A DNA stretch of 64,000 bases, taken from an uncultured delta proteobacterium. GTDB lineage: Bacteria; Myxococcota_A; Polyangia; Palsa-1104. Positions 27,001 through 51,000 of the stretch are shown here, one piece after another. Position numbers: made by a program. The stretch covers positions 448,001 to 512,000 of the forward strand of contig CAWAWS010000003.1 of the NCBI GenBank assembly GCA_963785725.1. Direction: 5' to 3'. Numbering within the stretch: position 1 is the first letter of the stretch; each line of letters opens with the position of its first letter.

Positions 27001-30000
27001 CTCGAGCTGCCCGAGCGGCCAGTACGCCGGCGGCGGCTGCAGCGGCTCGAGCGACACCAGCTGCACCGCCTGCCCGGCCGTCGCCGGCTGCCCGAGCAAC
27101 CAGGTCACCTGCACCAGCGCCGGCGACGCCGTCTGCAACCAGTGCAGCGCCGGCACCTACCTGTCGAACGGCAGCTGCGTCGCCTGCACGGCCGTCGCCG
27201 GCTGCAGCTCGGCGGTCAGCTGCACCAGCGCCAACGACTCGCAGTGCACCGCCTGCACGAGCGGCGACTATCTGGTCAACGGCAGCGTCGACAGCTGCGC
27301 CACTTGCTCGAGCTGCGCGGCCGGCCAGTACGCCTCGGCCGGCTGCAGCGGCGCCACCGACACCAGCTGCTCGAGCTGCACGCCGGTCGCCAACTGCATG
27401 AGCGGCCATGCGACCTGCACCAGCGCCAACGATGCCACCTGCGACCAATGCAGCGCGGGCTTCTACCTCTCGAACGGCACCTGCGTCGCCTGCGCCGCCG
27501 TCGCCGGCTGCACCTCGACGGTGACCTGCACCGGCACCGGCGACTCGCAGTGCACGAGCTGCGCGCAGGGCCGCTATCTGCAAGGCGGCGCCGTCGACAG
27601 CTGCCCGCTGTGCACGCCGGTCGCGCATTGCGCCTCGGGCGTGACCTGCACCGACCCGAGCGACTCGGTCTGCGCCGACTGCGCGTCGGGCTACTTCTTG
27701 AGCAACGGCGCCTGCGTCGCCTGCGCCACCTGCGCCACCGGCCAGTACCAGAGCGCTGCCTGCACCGGCACCACCGACACGCAATGCGCGAGCTGCGTCG
27801 CCGTCGACGGCTGCGCCGCGGCCGTCAGCTGCACCAGCGCCAACGACTCGCAGTGCGCCAGCTGCAACAGCGGCCGCTACCTCGCCAACGGCACCCAAGA
27901 CAGCTGCCCAACATGCACGCCGGTGTCCGGCTGCACGTCGCCGGTCACCTGCACCACCGGCAGCGATCAGCAGTGCAACGCCTGCGGCGCCGGCAGCTAC
28001 TTGAACAACGGCGCCTGCAGCACCTGCTCGAGCGGCTGCCCGACGGGACAGTACGAAGCCGCCGCGTGCACCGCCAACGCCGATCGCGTCTGCGCCGCCT
28101 GCGACGCGAGCTGCGCCAGCTGCAGCGGCACGGCCACGCAGTGCACCAGCTGCCCGGCCGCGTCGTACCTGAGCAACGGCCAGTGCCTCAGCTGCAGCCA
28201 TTGCGCCGCCGGCACGCGACTGACGACGGCATGCAGCGCCGGCGCCGACACCGTCTGCACCGACTGCGTCGCCGGCACCTTCTCGAGCACGCCCGACGCC
28301 GCGGCCTGCTCGCAGTGCACCGCCGGCAGCTACGCCGGCGCCGCCGCGACCTCGTGCACCACCTGCGCGCCCGGCAGCATCTCGAGCGCGGGCGCCGCCA
28401 GCTGCTCGACCTGCGTGGCGGGCACTGCGGCCGGTGACGGCGGCGCGGCCTGCAGCAGCTGCCCGGCCGGCAGCTTCTCCGCGGACGGCTCGACGCAGTG
28501 CACGTCGTGCCCGGCCGGCACCGCATCGGCCGCGGGCCAAGCGACCTGCTCGGCGTGCGCGCCCGGCGGCTACACCAGCGCGCCCGGCGCCACGACGTGC
28601 GACGTCTGCCCGGCCGGCAGCTTCTCGGGCTCGAGCGGCGCGACGTCGTGCATGCCGTGCGCGGCCGGCACCTTCGCGCAGCCGGGCTCCGGCAGCTGCA
28701 CCGCCTGCCCGAGCGGCACCTGGTCGCTCGGCGGCGCCGACAGCTGCGTGGCTTGCAACTGCGACGACGGCAACAGCTGCACCAACGACAGCTGCAATCC
28801 GACGTCGGGCTGCCAGCACGTCAACAGCTGCGGCGCCGATCTCGGCGGCGGCCCCGTCGATGCCGGCACCGGCGCGGTCGACGCCGGCGCCGACGCCGGC
28901 GGCAACCCGCCGCCGCCCGACCTCGGCCACCGCCCCGCGCCCCTGGCGAGCGGCTGCTCGATGAGCCAAAGCAGCCGCGGCGACGGCGCCGGCTACCTGC
29001 TCTTGGCGCTCGGCTTGGCTCTCTTCATGGGCTGGAAGCGCCGCCGACAGACCGACAAAGGCTGACCGACCTCGTCATCGCCGCGTCGCGCGCGCCGCGA
29101 CTTGACCGCCCAGCCGAGTGAGCCTAGTCTCGCCAAGCCGATGGCCCATGATCTCATCGCCGTCGCTGCTGGCCGGTGACCCACATGCCTCCGCGCGAGA
29201 CGAGCTGCAGGACGGCGATTTTGGTGCTCGGTTGCCGGCAGCCGATTCTATCAGCGCTGCATCCAGACCATCCGCGCCACCTGGGGCGCGACCGCGTCGA
29301 ATCAGACCGACATTTATTATGTGTATGGCGCCAAGAGCTCGGCCGGCGAAGCGCTGATCGACCTCTCGCAGCTCCTGGCGCTCCACGCGGCCGAGCCGCC
29401 ACGCCACGCGCTCACCGACGGCGACGTCTGGGTCTCGGGTGACGTCATCTTGTGCGGCGCGGCCGACGTGCTCCACGACCAACCTGACTGCATCCTGCGC
29501 AAGCGGCTGCTCGCGTTCGATTACTTGGCCAACGAGCGCGGCTACGACTTCGTCTACAACGTGTGCGCGTCGAGCTACGTCGATGTCGCCGCGCTCGAGC
29601 GATACGTCGCCGGCGTGCCGCGCTCCGGCGTCTACCACGGCGCGGCGGTCGTGCACGGCGCCAGCGGCTTTCCGTTCGTGTCCGGCGCCTCGTTCTTGCT
29701 CTCGCGCGACGTCGCCGCCGACCTGGCCAACAGCGCCGAGCGCATCCTCGCCACCTATCCCGAGACGATGCCCGACGATGTCGTGCTCGGACACTTCATC
29801 GCCGGCAAGTACGGCGGCGCTCCGGTCGCGGACATCGCGCGCCGCATCGCGACAGCCCAAAGAGCGACCGCCAACCAGACGTTCGTGGTGCCTCACGGCG
29901 GCGGCAGCATGGACTTCGTAACGAAGCCGGAGTTCCGACAGATTCCCGAGGAGCCCAACTTTCATTTTCATTTCCATTCGGGTCGCATGTGGGAGATGGA

Positions 30001-48000: not shown

Positions 48001-51000
48001 GGCCAGCGAGAAGCCGGCATCGACGTGCGGCGGGATCGAGCCGCCCGGCCGCAAGCGCACCAGCAGCGAGCGAACGATCCAGCCCGCATCGCCGAAGCAG
48101 CCGGCGATCACGCCGTGGATCGGCTCGATGACGTGCGCAAAACGCGCGTAGCTCTCGCGCCGCGTCGGCTCGGCATGGCGAAAGTCGGCGTCGAAGAGCA
48201 GCGGAATGGTCTGCGTGTCACGATGCGTCGGGAAGGTCTCCTGGCGAAAGCGATCCGCCAGCCAATCCTCATCGGACAATCTCGACAGCTCGGCACAGAG
48301 CGCCGCGATGTCGACGGTGCCGCGCTGGAAGTAGTTCCCTGCGAAGTCCACGACGGCTGCTACAATCATGTCTCGTTCGCGTGTTCATTACAAAGTCATT
48401 CGTCTTCATCCATCTGCACAAGTCGGGCGGGACGTTCGTAAACCGCTTTCTGCAGCGCTTCTTTTCCGACGGACAGCGGCTGAATTGGCATCTGCCGCGC
48501 GCTTTTCTACCGCGCGACTTCCGCGCCCTGCCCGTCTTGGGCGTCGTGCGCAATCCGTGGGACTACTACGTCTCGTGGTTCACGTTTCAGTCGTCGATGC
48601 GCCCGCAGCAGCAGAACGCGCTGTACCGCGCGGTCTCGGACGACGGCACGCTCGCTTTTTCACCCGCGATCGCCAACCTCGTGAAGCTGTGCGACGACCG
48701 CGAGCGCTGGCAGGCCCTCCGCGCGCAGCTGCCGGACGCGTTCGTCGACCACGGCATCAACCTCACCAAGCGCTGCATCGATCCGCTGCTCGGCTCGGGA
48801 CGCGGCTTTTATTCGTTCCTGTTTCAGCGCATGTTCGCGCCGCCGGAAGGTGGCGATGGAGGCGGCGTGACGTTCGCGCGCATGGAGTCGCTGCGCGGCG
48901 ATCTGCTGCAGTTCCTCGGCGACGTCGGCGTCGAAGTTACCGACGAGATGCGCGACTTCCTGTTGCGCTCGGAGAGAGTGAACGTCACCGAGCACGCGCC
49001 GTTTGCCACCTATTACGACCCGGCCTTGCGCGACGAGGTCGGCGCGCGCGACCGCGAGGTCATCGAACGCTTCGGCTACCGGTTCAAAAGCGATAGTTGA
49101 AGCGCTCCACGTCTTCGGCGTAGCGACGGGCGACGAGCGCGCGCGCGCGCGGCCCGTAATATTGCGTGTAGTGACCGTGCTTGGTGCGGTTGAGGAACGG
49201 CAGCTCGATGGCGGGAAAGCCGGCGCGTTGGCAGATGTGCTGCCAGTCTTCGCTGACGCGCTCGATGCGTCCCAAGAAGTCGGGCAGCCAGCGGCCGGCA
49301 TCGTCGCGAAAGAAGCTGCACTGCGAGCGCAAGTGAACATCCAACAGCGCGTCTTCGCTGTGCGCGACCACTTCGACGAAGTCGTCGAACGTCATCTCGA
49401 GGCGAAAACGGCCGTCCTGCTGGAACCAGGGCGGCAGCGCGACCAGCCCTTTTTCACGATTGTCCGTGAAGGTGAACGCGTACGCCGACAAGAGCCGCGC
49501 CCACGGATTGCGCACGAAGCCGAAGCGAAAATGATCGGTGAGCGCATGGACGGCCATCTTGTCGAAGCCGGGAATCTCGGTCTTGAAGCGGTGCCGCGCC
49601 GGCCCGTCGCCGCGTTCGCTGATCGGGTGGCCGGCGAGCTTGGCCGCGACATAGGCGAGCGAGGTCGACGCCACCTTGGTCTGCGCGAGCAGCAGCGCGC
49701 GATACGGCGGAATGATCACGATGCCGTTGTAGGGCTGCATGCTCATGGTCGCGCCCACGATTTCACGAAGACAACGCCCTCGCAAGCCGCGCCTCCGCTG
49801 ACGGCGCCCGCTCGGGCACGACACTTTTGCCGGCGTTGCCGAGTCGGTGTCGCATCGAACCGCTCAAGTCGTCACGGCTGGGGCCGATGGACTAGAAGAG
49901 GGGGCATATCGTGGCGGTCGTGTACGTCGTGGCTGACGAGCCCACAAACCGTGAGCTCGTCGGGGCGTGCCTGACTGGAGACGGCCATACGCTGGTCGAG
50001 TTTGCGCGGGGAGACGATGCCGTAGCGGCGTGCGACTCGCAGCCTCCCGATCTGGTGCTGCTGGACCTCGTGATGCCCGGCCTAGAGGGCATTGGGACGG
50101 TCGAGCGGCTCAAGCGGCGGCACGGCCCCTTCCTTCCCGTCATCGTGGTGTCGGCGCTCAACGACACCGAATCGCGACGACAGTCACTTCTGGCCGGCGC
50201 CGACGACTTTCTCCTCCAGCCGTTCGACGCGCCAGAGCTCATCATTCGCGTGCGCAATCAGCTGGCGCGGCGGCAGAGCTCGATCGAGCAGCTGGCGCTC
50301 AAAGCCGAGCTGCTCGAGCTGCGGCGCTTCCGCACCGCGATGGCGCAGACGATCGTGCACGATCTGAGGAATCCGTCCTGCGCCGTCTTGGCCAGCATCG
50401 ACTACGTCCTCGAGGAGTGGAGCACGCTCCCGGGAGAAGTCGTCGAGGCGCTGCAAGACGCACAGAAGGCCTCGCATCGCGTCGGCGAGCTCTTGAGCAA
50501 CTTGGCAGACATGACGCGCATCGAAGAGGGGCAGCTCCAGCTCGTGCGCAAGCAGGTGGCCTCCGACGATCTGCTGCGCGAGCTGGCGGCGCCGCGGGAG
50601 TGCGAGGCGCGCCGGCGAAAGATCGAAATTACGTATGGCGTCGCGTCCGGCGCCGAGCAGCTCGACATCGACCGCAGCCTGTTCATGCGCATGATCGAGA
50701 ACCTGCTCGACAACGCCATTCGCTACACGCCGCCCAAAGGCCGCATCTCGGTCAGCATCCGGCGCGCCGATTCGGGCATGCGAATCGAAGTGGGCAACAG
50801 CGGTGCGCCGGCGCCCGATTGCGTTCGCACCGTCGTGTTCGACAAGCTCGGCCAGACAGACGGCGACTCGGGACGCATGAACCTCGGGCTCGGACTCCAC
50901 TTTTCCCGGCGCGCCGTCGAAGCGCACGGCGGCCGCATCTGGGTCGAGGAGCGCCCCGAGCTCTCCACGGTCTTCTGCATCGACCTCCCCGACACCGCAC

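Follow-up and report, generated by a model that had tools for sequence, protein, structure and literature searches.

Which molecule does a dense cluster of hydroxylase and glycosyltransferase genes in an uncultured soil myxobacterium modify, and by which route does the product leave the cell? The modification genes span 29.3-49.8 kb of the window, the 64,000-nucleotide stretch analyzed here, according to a Pfam scan (Table 1), and the conserved cluster most likely hydroxylates and glycosylates a small exported Pro-Thr repeat protein, as its gene sequences suggest. Our literature search found no paper on this cluster family.

Gene content and conservation

All gene types listed in the genome-wide survey's note were recovered in place by Pfam. 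The core genes are tightly packed, with successive start and stop codons overlapping or abutting. The window proteins were searched by tblastn on 25 related loci, which belong to Polyangia, Nitrotoga, Binatia, Gammaproteobacteria and Acidimicrobiia, and the core operon is kept in 21-24 of them. Relatives of the glycosyltransferases with a C-terminal RRE (GT-RRE) are present in 24 loci and those of the O-fucosyltransferase-like (O-FucT-like) protein in 22, while the prolyl 4-hydroxylase, g00740 and both GT60 proteins each have relatives in 21. Relatives of g00741 (15 loci), the epimerase (11), gA (8) and the free PqqD protein (2) are found as well; gA has no Pfam or NCBIfam match.

Table 1. Genes of the cluster and segments of the precursor, in window positions.
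Feature	Position	Strand	Evidence
gA, conserved protein, 243 aa	29321..30052	+	stop overlaps epimerase start (ATGA)
GDP-mannose 3,5-epimerase gene	30049..31033	+	PDB 2c59/8sg0 E 1e-86
GT60/Gnt1-like glycosyltransferase a	31023..31940	-	PF11397 E 1.4e-42
GT-A glycosyltransferase + C-terminal RRE, copy 1 (P0061, 327 aa)	31937..32920	-	PqqD E 1.9e-12
PhyA-like prolyl 4-hydroxylase, copy a	32917..33948 (start = candidate)	-	2OG-FeII_Oxy_3 E 1.4e-18
O-fucosyltransferase-like protein (residues 1-380) + HprK-related C-terminal domain	33945..35942	-	weak O-FucT
g00740, divergent 2OG-Fe(II) oxygenase, ~215 aa	35943..36590	-	atlas lead 2OG-FeII_Oxy_3 at 0.91
g00741, N-terminal RRE + retaining-type GT-A glycosyltransferase	36587..37915	-	PqqD E 2.4e-11
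GT60/Gnt1-like glycosyltransferase b	37992..39002 (39005 in the Pfam scan)	-	PF11397 E 5.5e-44
Accessory glycosyltransferase-like (Glyco_trans_1_2), divergent from core operon	39085..41169	+	PF13524 E 1.3e-14; relatives 4/25 loci
UDP-xylose synthase (UDP-glucuronate decarboxylase)	41183..42154	-	human UXS1 4gll E 4.7e-103
GT-A glycosyltransferase + C-terminal RRE, copy 2 (P0003, 372 aa)	42154..43272	-	PqqD E 3.2e-10
PhyA-like prolyl 4-hydroxylase, copy b	43269..44303	-	2OG-FeII_Oxy_3 E 8e-17
Precursor/substrate protein (putative), 200 aa, TTG start	44352..44954	-	translation
Precursor xxPT repeats, residues 105-162	44469..44642	-	
Precursor WVAPVVL, residues 62-68	44751..44771	-	
Precursor Arg54-Arg55	44790..44795	-	
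Stand-alone PqqD/RRE protein, directly upstream of precursor	44973..45278	-	PqqD E 4.5e-14
JmjC_2 (ribosomal-oxygenase-type) protein hydroxylase, accessory	45357..46478	+	PF08007 E 1.4e-22; relatives 2/25 loci
Sulfotransfer_3 family protein, accessory	46410..47378	-	PF13469 E 4.3e-11; relatives 1/25 loci
LTXXQ (Spy/CpxP-type) protein, accessory	47397..47807	-	PF07813 E 1.4e-5; relatives 0/25 loci
Asp/Asn beta-hydroxylase-like cupin, accessory	47791..48369	-	PF05118 E 1.7e-12; relatives 0/25 loci
Weak sulfotransferase-like protein	48381..49100	+	PF00685 (Sulfotransfer_1) E 5.3e-4, below cut-off
Sulfotransfer_2 family protein	49084..49824	-	PF03567 E 3.4e-17; weak relatives 4/25 loci

Two genes for nucleotide-sugar enzymes are carried by the cluster. 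The earlier call of a GDP-mannose 3,5-epimerase holds as to family, but the reading frame is broken in this assembly near 30165-30180, where the Rossmann N-terminus MKRALVLGGGGFIG sits in a different frame; the orthologues are intact. The UDP-xylose synthase was confirmed by its match to the human enzyme, and its gene is missing in contigs from two soil runs, in which position 41177 is joined to 42151. As well, the Sulfotransfer_2 gene, just past the earlier end of the cluster, is a third sulfotransferase gene, and the JmjC_2 protein, which matches NO66, MINA53 and YcfD structures (E 1.6e-11 to 1e-6), the Asp/Asn-hydroxylase-like cupin and the LTXXQ protein were absent from the earlier gene list. 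A neighboring TNFR-repeat protein, formerly suggested as a further substrate, is unlikely to be one.

Hydroxylases and glycosyltransferases

The two PhyA-like prolyl 4-hydroxylases are 59% identical, and copy b, whose top solved match is the prolyl 4-hydroxylase 6t8m (E 8e-9), has H222, D224, H290 and R306 invariant among 21 sequences. The divergent oxygenase g00740 likewise has an invariant HxD...H.R motif (H129, D131, H182 and R184), and it is fused behind a prolyl 4-hydroxylase-like domain in actinobacterial loci.

The two GT60 proteins are 37% identical to each other and share an invariant D96-x-H98 (n=21 each). Five of the seven other genomes of the class that have PF11397 carry such a gene without this GT-RRE as companion. 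The Pfam match of the O-FucT-like protein is weak (E 3.8e-4, 20.6 bits vs a cut-off of 31.5), as is its profile match to POFUT2 4ap5 (E 0.014); its H196-x-R198-R199-x-D201 motif is invariant, and 13 of 18 family members match TIGR04352 weakly.

Three retaining-type GT-A glycosyltransferases, each with a fused PqqD/RRE domain, and one free PqqD protein were identified (PqqD domains at E 3e-10 to 5e-14). The genome-wide survey's note had counted two such fusions; both are present, and the third is g00741, whose C-terminal 320 residues form a GT-A domain. The two GT-RRE copies are 54-63% identical, and the GT domain joined to the C-terminal RRE shows VEPR in place of a canonical DxD. For copy 2, which has 114 relatives, the predicted model (pLDDT 90.5) matches BoGT6a in Foldseek (E 4.8e-7) and glycogenin in the VIA comparison (Z 15.1), while that of g00741 (pLDDT 74.5), in which D234-x-D236 is invariant, matches WbbM/GT6 (E 7e-6) in Foldseek and glycogenin/LgtC (Z 14.7) and the Skp1 enzyme Gat1 6mw5 (Z 14.2) in VIA. 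The former GT6 label was too narrow, since GT6 ties with GT8 and GT24; it can safely be stated that both RRE-fused domain types are predicted to adopt a retaining-type GT-A fold. A comparison by hhalign shows the RREs of both fusion types to be homologous (98.5%, E 3e-15), and the model nearest to the free PqqD is lasso_PqqD_Bac (E 1e-11, below cut-off).

The precursor and its co-occurrence with RRE domains

Translation of the 200-aa Pro-Thr ORF agrees with its earlier description, and its coding GC3 pattern and conserved leader indicate that it is a genuine gene. When leader residues 1-105 were compared by phmmer with 1.84 billion representatives, 29 matched at E<=1e-3, the query included, so that 28 further representatives share the leader. 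The precursor is a single-copy gene, and the leader HMM matches only this ORF in its own genome. A leader helix (residues 7-26) is followed by the arginine pair, the WVAPVVL box, ALA (residues 88-90), the repeats, and a C-terminal motif, GHC...LGMASAPDCG...GFIALGAARA. Across the family, the element that never varies is R-x6-7-WxxPVxL; behind it come a few hydrophobic residues, a c-region with basic character, AxA, and the xxP(T/S) repeats, whose period is 4, and the alignment shows L13, E16, R55, W62, P65, V66 and L68 to be invariant.

The repeat cores are 60-270 residues long, with a P[TS]-to-P[TS] spacing of 4 in 276 of 432 cases and the remaining two positions varying freely; in a relative's contig the repeats are 42 nt longer, which keeps the frame. 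In several relatives the C-terminus is a hydrophobic helix with basic and then acidic residues behind it, in keeping with repeats placed outside the membrane, and the myxobacterial precursors have the conserved C-terminal motif in place of this helix.

The precursor co-occurs with the RRE. The leader HMM matches an ORF in 15 of the 25 related loci, from several phyla, all of them among the 17 loci whose glycosyltransferase match extends into the RRE; where that match ends near residue 270, no leader was detected (0 of 7 loci). The matching ORF lies directly upstream of the g00741 homologue in 12 of the 15 (L001-L003, L005-L007, L009, L011 and L014-L017); L017 is the locus of a cultured bacterium, Elongatibacter sediminis CH-27. 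Loci L012 and L013 carry a GT-RRE gene, and a precursor was not found in the locus DNA searched. In three actinobacterial loci, L019, L022 and L023, a PqqD domain is present on the Pro-Thr ORF itself (E 3e-5, 1.7e-4 and 7e-7, respectively), with RR, hydrophobic residues and the repeats behind it.

Export signal and alternative explanations

The segment described earlier as Tat-like carries RR, a hydrophobic stretch, a basic c-region and AxA, but it is preceded by 50-60 residues and so lies inside the chain, and Pfam TAT_signal does not recognize it (2 of 27 precursors matched, at E 0.2). A Tat route is nevertheless plausible from the tripartite n/h/c layout, with a basic c-region residue and AxA in most members, and TatC is encoded in the genome. 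No signal-like or TM-like segment was found in the cluster enzymes (maximum 19-residue hydropathy, 1.67), so the enzymes appear to be cytoplasmic and the bulky glycosylated chain would have to cross the membrane.

It is conceivable, if rather unlikely, that the same modification pathway acts on a precursor whose arginine/hydrophobic segment serves for RRE docking and/or as a Sec-type signal-anchor, followed by Sec/YidC insertion or export, or by membrane attachment with the N-terminus inside. Besides the internal position and poor TAT_signal matches, the WxxPVxL box is conserved more strongly than the first arginine, RR being replaced by KR in 2 of 27 aligned precursors; such conservation exceeds the needs of a signal h-region, so the segment may be mainly a recognition box or membrane anchor. 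The YxxPxL box of lasso-peptide leaders, which WxxPVxL resembles in form, is bound by PqqD-type RREs, and the lasso-type affinity of the free PqqD and the second, C-terminal helix of some relatives fit this alternative too. Proteins glycosylated in the cytoplasm can also leave without Tat, as the HMW1 adhesin does via Sec and serine-rich repeat adhesins via accessory Sec. However, in Tat signals a basic residue in the c-region helps to avoid Sec, the actinobacterial GRRxLIAKLGLTAAAAAAL is near the Tat consensus, and passage of a bulky glycosylated chain also speaks for Tat.

A diffusible RiPP-type glycopeptide, for which the leader would be removed to release a short, modified Pro-Thr peptide instead of a surface glycoprotein, is improbable. 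The presence of four RREs and the division of the precursor into leader and core would suit it, and RRE-glycosyltransferase fusions are flagged among candidate new RiPP clusters in parts of two papers (PMC7470986, PMC12710340). However, the cluster has no peptidase, cyclase or transporter, the repeat cores are long, and many relatives carry the C-terminal membrane helix and charged tail. Most improbable is that the enzymes work on a polysaccharide or on some other protein, beside an unrelated or non-coding Pro-Thr ORF, since, although the nucleotide-sugar genes and several glycosyltransferases could suit a glycan pathway and GC-rich DNA holds many spurious ORFs, the cluster lacks flippase, polymerase, priming transferase and export genes, and this ORF has a coding pattern, a conserved leader, co-occurrence with RRE-bearing loci and, in three of them, fusion to the RRE.

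Proposed pathway and comparison with known systems

We favor, with a probability of roughly 0.6, a leader/RRE-guided cytoplasmic pathway of hydroxylation and O-glycosylation followed by export, with the 200-aa protein as its substrate. The precursor would be made in the cytoplasm and its leader bound by the RREs of the three GT-A enzymes and the free PqqD, most likely through the WxxPVxL box shortly behind the arginine pair, and this binding would tether the enzymes to the repeat region. The PhyA-like hydroxylases and g00740 may then hydroxylate the prolines of the xxP(T/S) repeats, and the two GT60 paralogues may add a first HexNAc onto Hyp and/or Thr. The glycans could be extended by the RRE-fused glycosyltransferases and the O-FucT-like enzyme, whose donor is probably GDP-L-galactose from the adjacent epimerase, while the UDP-xylose synthase, the JmjC and AspH-like hydroxylases and the sulfotransferases might act as lineage-specific decorators. 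Export would depend on the internal signal, made up of the arginine pair, a weakly hydrophobic stretch, the basic c-region and AxA, most plausibly by way of Tat. The end product would be a glycoprotein of mucin or extensin type that lies outside the cytoplasm, held in some relatives by the C-terminal membrane helix. Points that weigh against this pathway, besides those on the export signal, are VEPR in place of DxD, the sub-threshold O-FucT match, the broken epimerase frame, the PF11397 genes without this GT-RRE in five genomes of the class, and the two GT-RRE loci (L012 and L013) with no precursor found in the locus DNA searched.

The genetic logic of the earlier leader-guided reading, with RREs, modifying enzymes and a leader-bearing Pro-Thr substrate, is strongly backed by the comparison of loci, while hydroxyproline, sugars, sulfate, RRE-leader binding and Tat export are what we infer from it. 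At the level of its genes, the cluster appears as a bacterial look-alike of two eukaryotic systems, the plant extensins and the modification of Skp1 in protists.

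Organization of the gene cluster

The DNA has a G+C content of 65-72% and yields many spurious open reading frames, so genes were called by third-position GC and frame, after which the calls were checked against Pfam and NCBIfam. The core operon and the second operon both lie on the minus strand, and neighboring genes of the former mostly have overlapping or abutting start and stop codons. The second operon is flanked by Pfam-recognized genes for a Glyco_trans_1_2 protein, a JmjC_2 hydroxylase, an Asp/Asn-hydroxylase-like cupin, an LTXXQ protein, and three sulfotransferase-like proteins. 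No peptidase or transporter family was detected among the genes between 29.3 and 54.7 kb or in the scanned flanks.

Positions and strands of the genes discussed, counted within the window
Feature	Group	Position	Strand
Cys/Ser/Thr/Ala-rich protein with TNFR_c6 repeats, 2220 aa (g00733)	upstream neighbor	22403-29065	+
gA, conserved 243-aa protein	facing the core operon	29321-30052	opposite to core operon
GDP-mannose 3,5-epimerase	beside gA
GT60 'a'	core operon	31023-31940	-
GT-RRE 1	core operon	31937-32920	-
P4H 'a'	core operon	32917-33948	-
O-FucT-like protein	core operon	33945-35942	-
2OG oxygenase g00740	core operon	35943-36590	-
RRE-GT (g00741)	core operon	36587-37915	-
GT60 'b'	core operon	37992-39002	-
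UDP-xylose synthase (UXS)	second operon	41183-42154	-
GT-RRE 2	second operon	42154-43272	-
P4H 'b'	second operon	43269-44303	-
200-aa Pro-Thr repeat protein (precursor)	second operon	44352-44954	-
Free PqqD	second operon	44973-45278	-
Response-regulator/HD-domain run	beyond the cluster	49911-57341
KaiB-KaiC pair	beyond the cluster	57338-59573	-
Ice-binding-like (PF11999) protein with Big_5 domain	beyond the cluster	59859-61013	-

Two genes have a copy in each operon: P4H 'a' and 'b' are 59% identical, and GT-RRE 1 and 2 are 54-63% identical. The GT60 transferases, RRE-fused glycosyltransferases, P4Hs, g00740, O-FucT-like protein, and precursor are all confined to this locus within a genome of 8.9 Mb, whereas the two SDR sugar enzymes of the cluster, and no others, have paralogues at other sites.

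Beyond the cluster, a KaiB-KaiC pair lies beside PAS histidine kinases and the response-regulator/HD-domain run, and is possibly part of a clock-like signaling block. The ice-binding-like protein adjoins an OmpA/TSP_3 protein.

Hydroxylases and GT60 transferases

The P4H genes encode PhyA-like hydroxylases. The best solved match of P4H 'b' is 6t8m (E 8e-9), with the HxD motif, the distal His, and the Arg all aligned, and all of 21 sequences keep H222, D224, H290, and R306. The divergent 2OG-Fe(II) oxygenase g00740 has no Pfam match at E<=1, and its profile retrieved only chance-level rows from the PDB (E 0.1 and above). Its alignment contains invariant H129-x-D131, H182, and R184, and an atlas look-up, which serves as a lead only, agrees with the oxygenase assignment. 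Additionally, in actinobacterial loci (L019, L022-L024), a P4H-like domain precedes the g00740-type oxygenase in a single fused protein.

The GT60 family acts on hydroxyproline (Hyp) and on Thr in protists. PF11397 is found on GT60 'a' (E 1.4e-42) and 'b' (E 5.5e-44), far above the cut-off, and a D-x-H motif is invariant in both paralogues. A PDB sequence search with GT60 'b' gave zero matches, as did those with the Sulfotransfer_3 and Sulfotransfer_2 proteins.

RRE-fused glycosyltransferases

Four PqqD domains are present in the cluster (Pfam, E 3e-10 to 5e-14). The RRE profile matches PqqD 3g2b (E 9e-4), and the secondary structure of a winged helix-turn-helix (wHTH) is visible in the AlphaFold model of GT-RRE 2. 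Pfam at E<=1 recognizes neither the GT domain of GT-RRE 2 nor the C-domain of g00741. The model of GT-RRE 2 (pLDDT 90.5) matches GT6 enzymes by Foldseek (E 4.8e-7) and glycogenin by VIA (Z 15.1, rmsd 3.7, 219 aligned). In the g00741 model (pLDDT 74.5), residues 124-442 form a retaining-type GT-A domain, for which Foldseek returned WbbM (7e-6) and GT6 (1e-5), and VIA returned glycogenin/LgtC (Z 14.7, rmsd 3.8, 231 aligned), 6mw5, the Skp1 alpha-galactosyltransferase (Z 14.2, tied with glycogenin and LgtC), and GlyE 5gvv (Z 13.5). By these models, the RRE-fused enzymes resemble retaining glycosyltransferases of the GT-A, GT6/GT8-type fold.

Since the C-terminal part of g00741 is also GT-A, the cluster encodes three RRE-glycosyltransferase fusions in two orientations, with the RRE N-terminal in g00741 and C-terminal in GT-RRE 1 and 2, and the RREs of both orientations are homologous (hhalign 98.5%). 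The genome-wide survey's note had counted two GT-A/RRE fusions; both are present, and the AlphaFold model, Foldseek, and VIA add g00741 as a third. D234-x-D236 is invariant in g00741. The GT-RRE proteins lack a canonical DxD and read VEPR or LLLEP where it would be expected, at the end of a strand; a metal-independent GT6 (4ayl) exists and is among the Foldseek matches of GT-RRE 2.

O-FucT-like protein and sugar-nucleotide genes

The O-FucT-like protein falls under the PF10250 cut-off (20.6 vs 31.5 bits), and POFUT2 is matched by its profile at no better than E 0.014. Residues H196, R198, R199, and D201 of HxRRxD, a GDP-sugar motif of fucosyltransferases, are invariant in 18 sequences. In 13 of 18 members, the C-terminus weakly resembles HprK-related kinase A (TIGR04352). 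In L022 and L024, the O-FucT-like frame continues into a glycosyltransferase.

The epimerase matches solved GDP-mannose 3,5-epimerases at E 1e-86, with the next family at 5e-27, and the gene pairing suggests that the O-FucT-like enzyme may use GDP-L-galactose made by it. The Rossmann N-terminus of the epimerase lies in a different frame, with the switch near 30165-30180, and the orthologues in L001, L002, L005, and L016 are unbroken; the frameshift is either an assembly error or a genuine inactivation. A single soil contig spans 29956-30285 with one gap. All four soil runs carry an extra G after 29604, inside gA, and the window's gA, which has no Pfam match at E<=1, still aligns with that of L001 over 235 of its 243 residues.

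UXS matches human UXS1 at E 5e-103. In two soil runs (X1 and X4), GT1 is joined straight to GT-RRE 2 (41177 to 42151) with 27 other letters and without the UXS gene, which suggests that UXS was inserted recently in the lineage of the window.

Pro-Thr repeat precursor

The repeat open reading frame shows a coding GC3 pattern, and GAGG stands upstream of its TTG start. Its residues 1-105 retrieved 28 other representatives from 1.84 billion proteins. The family shares an N-terminal helix (KTKEQLLAEIEAL), followed by a variable acidic linker, the box (S/T)RRxxLxxWVAPVILSxP, a mildly hydrophobic stretch of 15-19 residues, a c-region that contains Lys or Arg together with AxA, and finally xxP(T/S) repeats. 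L13, E16, R55, W62, P65, V66, and L68 are invariant in the leader. Across 43 precursors, namely 28 database proteins and 15 locus ORFs, some of which are the same gene counted twice, successive P[TS] are spaced by 4 in 276 of 432 cases, and the other two positions differ between families. This adjacent precursor combines a conserved leader with a variable core.

Myxobacterial precursors end in GRC...LGMxxAPD...GFVALGSARA, and others in a hydrophobic helix with basic residues and then acidic ones behind it, the topology that would be expected if the repeats sit outside the membrane. The gammaproteobacterial precursors (L015:4393-4962 and L017:4363-4956) end in PVEL(S/T)EFEV, with neither a membrane helix nor the myxobacterial motif, possibly a sorting tag of another kind.

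In the window, the precursor gene is away from its usual place, where GT60 'b' and g00741 are just 76 nt apart, and now stands beside the duplicated module. Among the data sets listed for the precursor region (43200-45400), none was of RNA and the only matches were small-share soil and peat DNA contigs. One soil contig has an in-frame +42-nt difference within the repeat region.

The survey's note had named the neighboring TNFR-repeat protein g00733 as a possible further substrate, while recording that it is not conserved in 65 loci. This proposal was dropped, as PT dipeptides number only 8 over the 2220 residues of g00733, whose N-terminus resembles that of a lipoprotein and whose tail consists of Cys, a hydrophobic helix, and KRRR, of the MYXO-CTERM kind. 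TGC, ACC, and AGC codons make its first codon position unusually rich in A+T. Tyrosine sulfation at YYGG...DD after AxA was likewise considered and is not supported, given that L004 has a Sulfotransfer_3 relative and a precursor without Tyr there.

Proposed modification and export

None of the cluster enzymes has a signal- or membrane-like segment and their cofactors are soluble; therefore, modification must precede export. Most of 27 precursors carry the arrangement (S/T)RRxxL...h(15-19)...basic...AxA, with RR in 25 and KR in 2, and TatC is encoded on two contigs of the same genome (C7 and C39, E 3e-59). The segment resembles a Tat signal in its two arginines, an h-region of weak hydrophobicity, a basic c-region, and AxA. 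The survey's reading of a Tat-like signal thus holds for the n/h/c layout, the arginine pair, and the presence of TatC, and falters on other points: RR lies at residues 54-55 of the window precursor, so that the segment is internal rather than N-terminal, KR replaces RR in two members, and Pfam TAT_signal (PF10518) matched only 2 of the 27 precursors, at E 0.2. Moreover, the WxxPVxL box appears too conserved for a mere h-region, which counts against a plain Tat signal.

Lasso leaders carry a YxxPxL box. WxxPVxL matches this box in form and is proposed as a candidate RRE docking site; an RRE bound at this point could, in addition, keep the signal hidden for as long as modification goes on. In a complex prediction, the RRE of GT-RRE 2 (A1 residues 280-372) and the precursor leader (A2 residues 1-100) gave a score of 0.28 against a mark of 0.32. 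The co-occurrence of the precursor with RRE-bearing loci and the RRE-substrate fusions bear on leader binding only indirectly.

On the most far-reaching reading, to which we give a chance of about one in four, several bacterial phyla would make extensin- or mucin-like, Hyp/Thr-O-glycosylated surface glycoproteins wholly in the cytoplasm, with further hydroxylation and sulfation in myxobacteria. RREs would dock on a box inside the twin-arginine signal, so that one element both attracts the enzymes and delays Tat export while modification is under way, and the operon, with its PhyA-like, Gnt1-like, fucosyltransferase-like, and glycogenin/Gat1-like enzymes, would be a prokaryotic relative of the protist Skp1 pathway.

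Related loci and distribution

Alignment of 30 of 114 GT-RRE relatives led to 25 related loci, from Polyangia, Nitrotoga, Binatia, Gammaproteobacteria, Acidimicrobiia, and one Acidobacterium, the nearest of which belong to Polyangiaceae/Polyangia MAGs; the gammaproteobacterium Elongatibacter sediminis CH-27 (L017) is a cultured carrier. By tblastn with the window proteins, relatives of GT-RRE were found in 24 of the 25 loci, of the O-FucT-like protein in 22, of P4H, g00740, and each GT60 in 21, of g00741 in 15, of the epimerase- (GME-) and UXS-type SDRs in 11, of gA in 8, and of JmjC and free PqqD in 2, while AspH and LTXXQ had none in the 25. Soil contigs of four runs (at least 88% likeness) are relatives of the whole cluster.

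The leader HMM matches an ORF in 15 of the 25 loci, in 12 of which (L001-L003, L005-L007, L009, L011, and L014-L017) it lies directly upstream of the g00741 homologue. All 15 fall within the 17 loci whose GT match reaches the RRE, the exceptions being L012 and L013, and none is among the seven loci in which the GT match ends at about residue 270. Three of the latter (L019, L022, and L023) have a Pro-Thr ORF that itself starts with a PqqD domain, followed by GRRxLIAKLGLTAAAAAALPxVESIV and the repeats, and small Pro-Thr ORFs with a related box, PxxESVI or PVIEHIV, occur in L020 and L021. With the RRE on the GTs in 17 loci and on the substrate in L019, L022, and L023, an RRE is thus always part of the system, on enzymes or on substrate, although in L020 only the GT was examined for one. 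Across all precursor forms, the shared elements are limited to the basic motif, a PV(I/V) box, and repeats. A copy of the leader helix was not found on the enzymes of the actinobacterial loci, and the helix HMM matched only the precursors of 14 loci. In L020, a sponge-symbiont MAG with a GT lacking an RRE, two small Pro-Thr precursors with near-identical leaders stand in tandem (15518-16204, minus strand).

A sample of 401 genomes of the class contained 8 with PF11397; none of 4 other members of the genus, 14 family members, and 14 control genomes had it, and the system is rare and patchy. As a marker of the system, PF11397 was rejected: only one of the seven other class carriers (G328) has a full GT-RRE, and in another (G320) the GT60 is accompanied by a match to the RRE alone. 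Patchy carriers with GT60 but without GT-RRE mean that GT60 alone is no marker.

Significance and comparison with known systems

As textbook knowledge, hydroxyproline-linked and mucin-type glycoproteins are eukaryotic inventions. An operon conserved in bacteria and combining a PhyA-type hydroxylase, GT60 transferases, and leader-recognition domains with a Pro-Thr repeat protein would offer a tractable bacterial model for Hyp/Thr O-glycosylation, a new use of RREs in steering glycosyltransferases onto a protein-sized substrate, a possible coupling between modification and Tat export, and a concrete candidate for prokaryotic relatives of Skp1-pathway enzymes. Experiments are feasible because E. 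sediminis CH-27 is a cultured strain. A full-text literature search returned no description of the cluster. Two RRE surveys (PMC12710340, PMC7470986) touch on fusions of RREs to glycosyltransferases only briefly, and their example, from Hassallia (PMC7470986, supplement file 7), belongs to a different cluster.

The Skp1 pathway of Dictyostelium and Toxoplasma (PhyA, Gnt1, and later GTs including Gat1) shares with the cluster a cytoplasmic prolyl 4-hydroxylase (6t8m as best solved match), PF11397/GT60 transferases, a Gat1-resembling retaining GT-A (6mw5, tied with glycogenin and LgtC), and a fucosyltransferase-like step. The cluster differs in its repeat substrate with an export-type signal, in place of the single Pro of Skp1, and in the proposed RRE recruitment, two GT60 paralogues, and a bacterial host. 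As its conserved neighbor is a Pro-Thr repeat protein, the cluster was not filed as a member of that pathway.

RRE-dependent RiPP pathways (PqqD/PqqA; lasso B1, TbiB1/TbiA) likewise have PqqD-fold RREs and a conserved leader with a variable core, and lasso RiPPs share the W/YxxPx(L/I)-type box. Unlike these, the cluster has RREs fused to glycosyltransferases (in Actinobacteria to the substrate), a long repeat core, and a signal-peptide-like leader part, and it has no protease, cyclase, or radical-SAM enzyme. The NCBIfam HprK-related kinase A/PqqD-related cassette (TIGR04352), on which no paper was found, resembles the O-FucT-like C-terminus and also lies beside PqqD-family proteins, but the match covers the last 57 residues only, at 22 bits vs a cut-off of 200.

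Similar to plant extensins and arabinogalactan proteins, the product would be an extracellular, extended glycoprotein with short Pro repeats, presumably hydroxylated and O-glycosylated. Plant HRGPs, however, are made in the ER/Golgi by membrane P4Hs and GT31/GT95/GT77 enzymes and carry SP3-5 or AP/SP motifs, whereas the cluster has xxP(T/S) and no tyrosine cross-link motifs. Gram-positive serine-rich repeat adhesins (GtfA/B, GlyE) likewise receive O-glycans on their repeats from soluble cytoplasmic GTs prior to export by a dedicated route, but they have no hydroxylases or RRE, use SecA2/SecY2, and have Ser-rich rather than Pro-Thr repeats. Finally, although the RRE fold (PqqD wHTH) is unrelated to that of the Tat proofreading chaperones TorD/DmsD, the proposed RRE would be analogous to them as a cytoplasmic protein that binds a twin-arginine signal until maturation is done.
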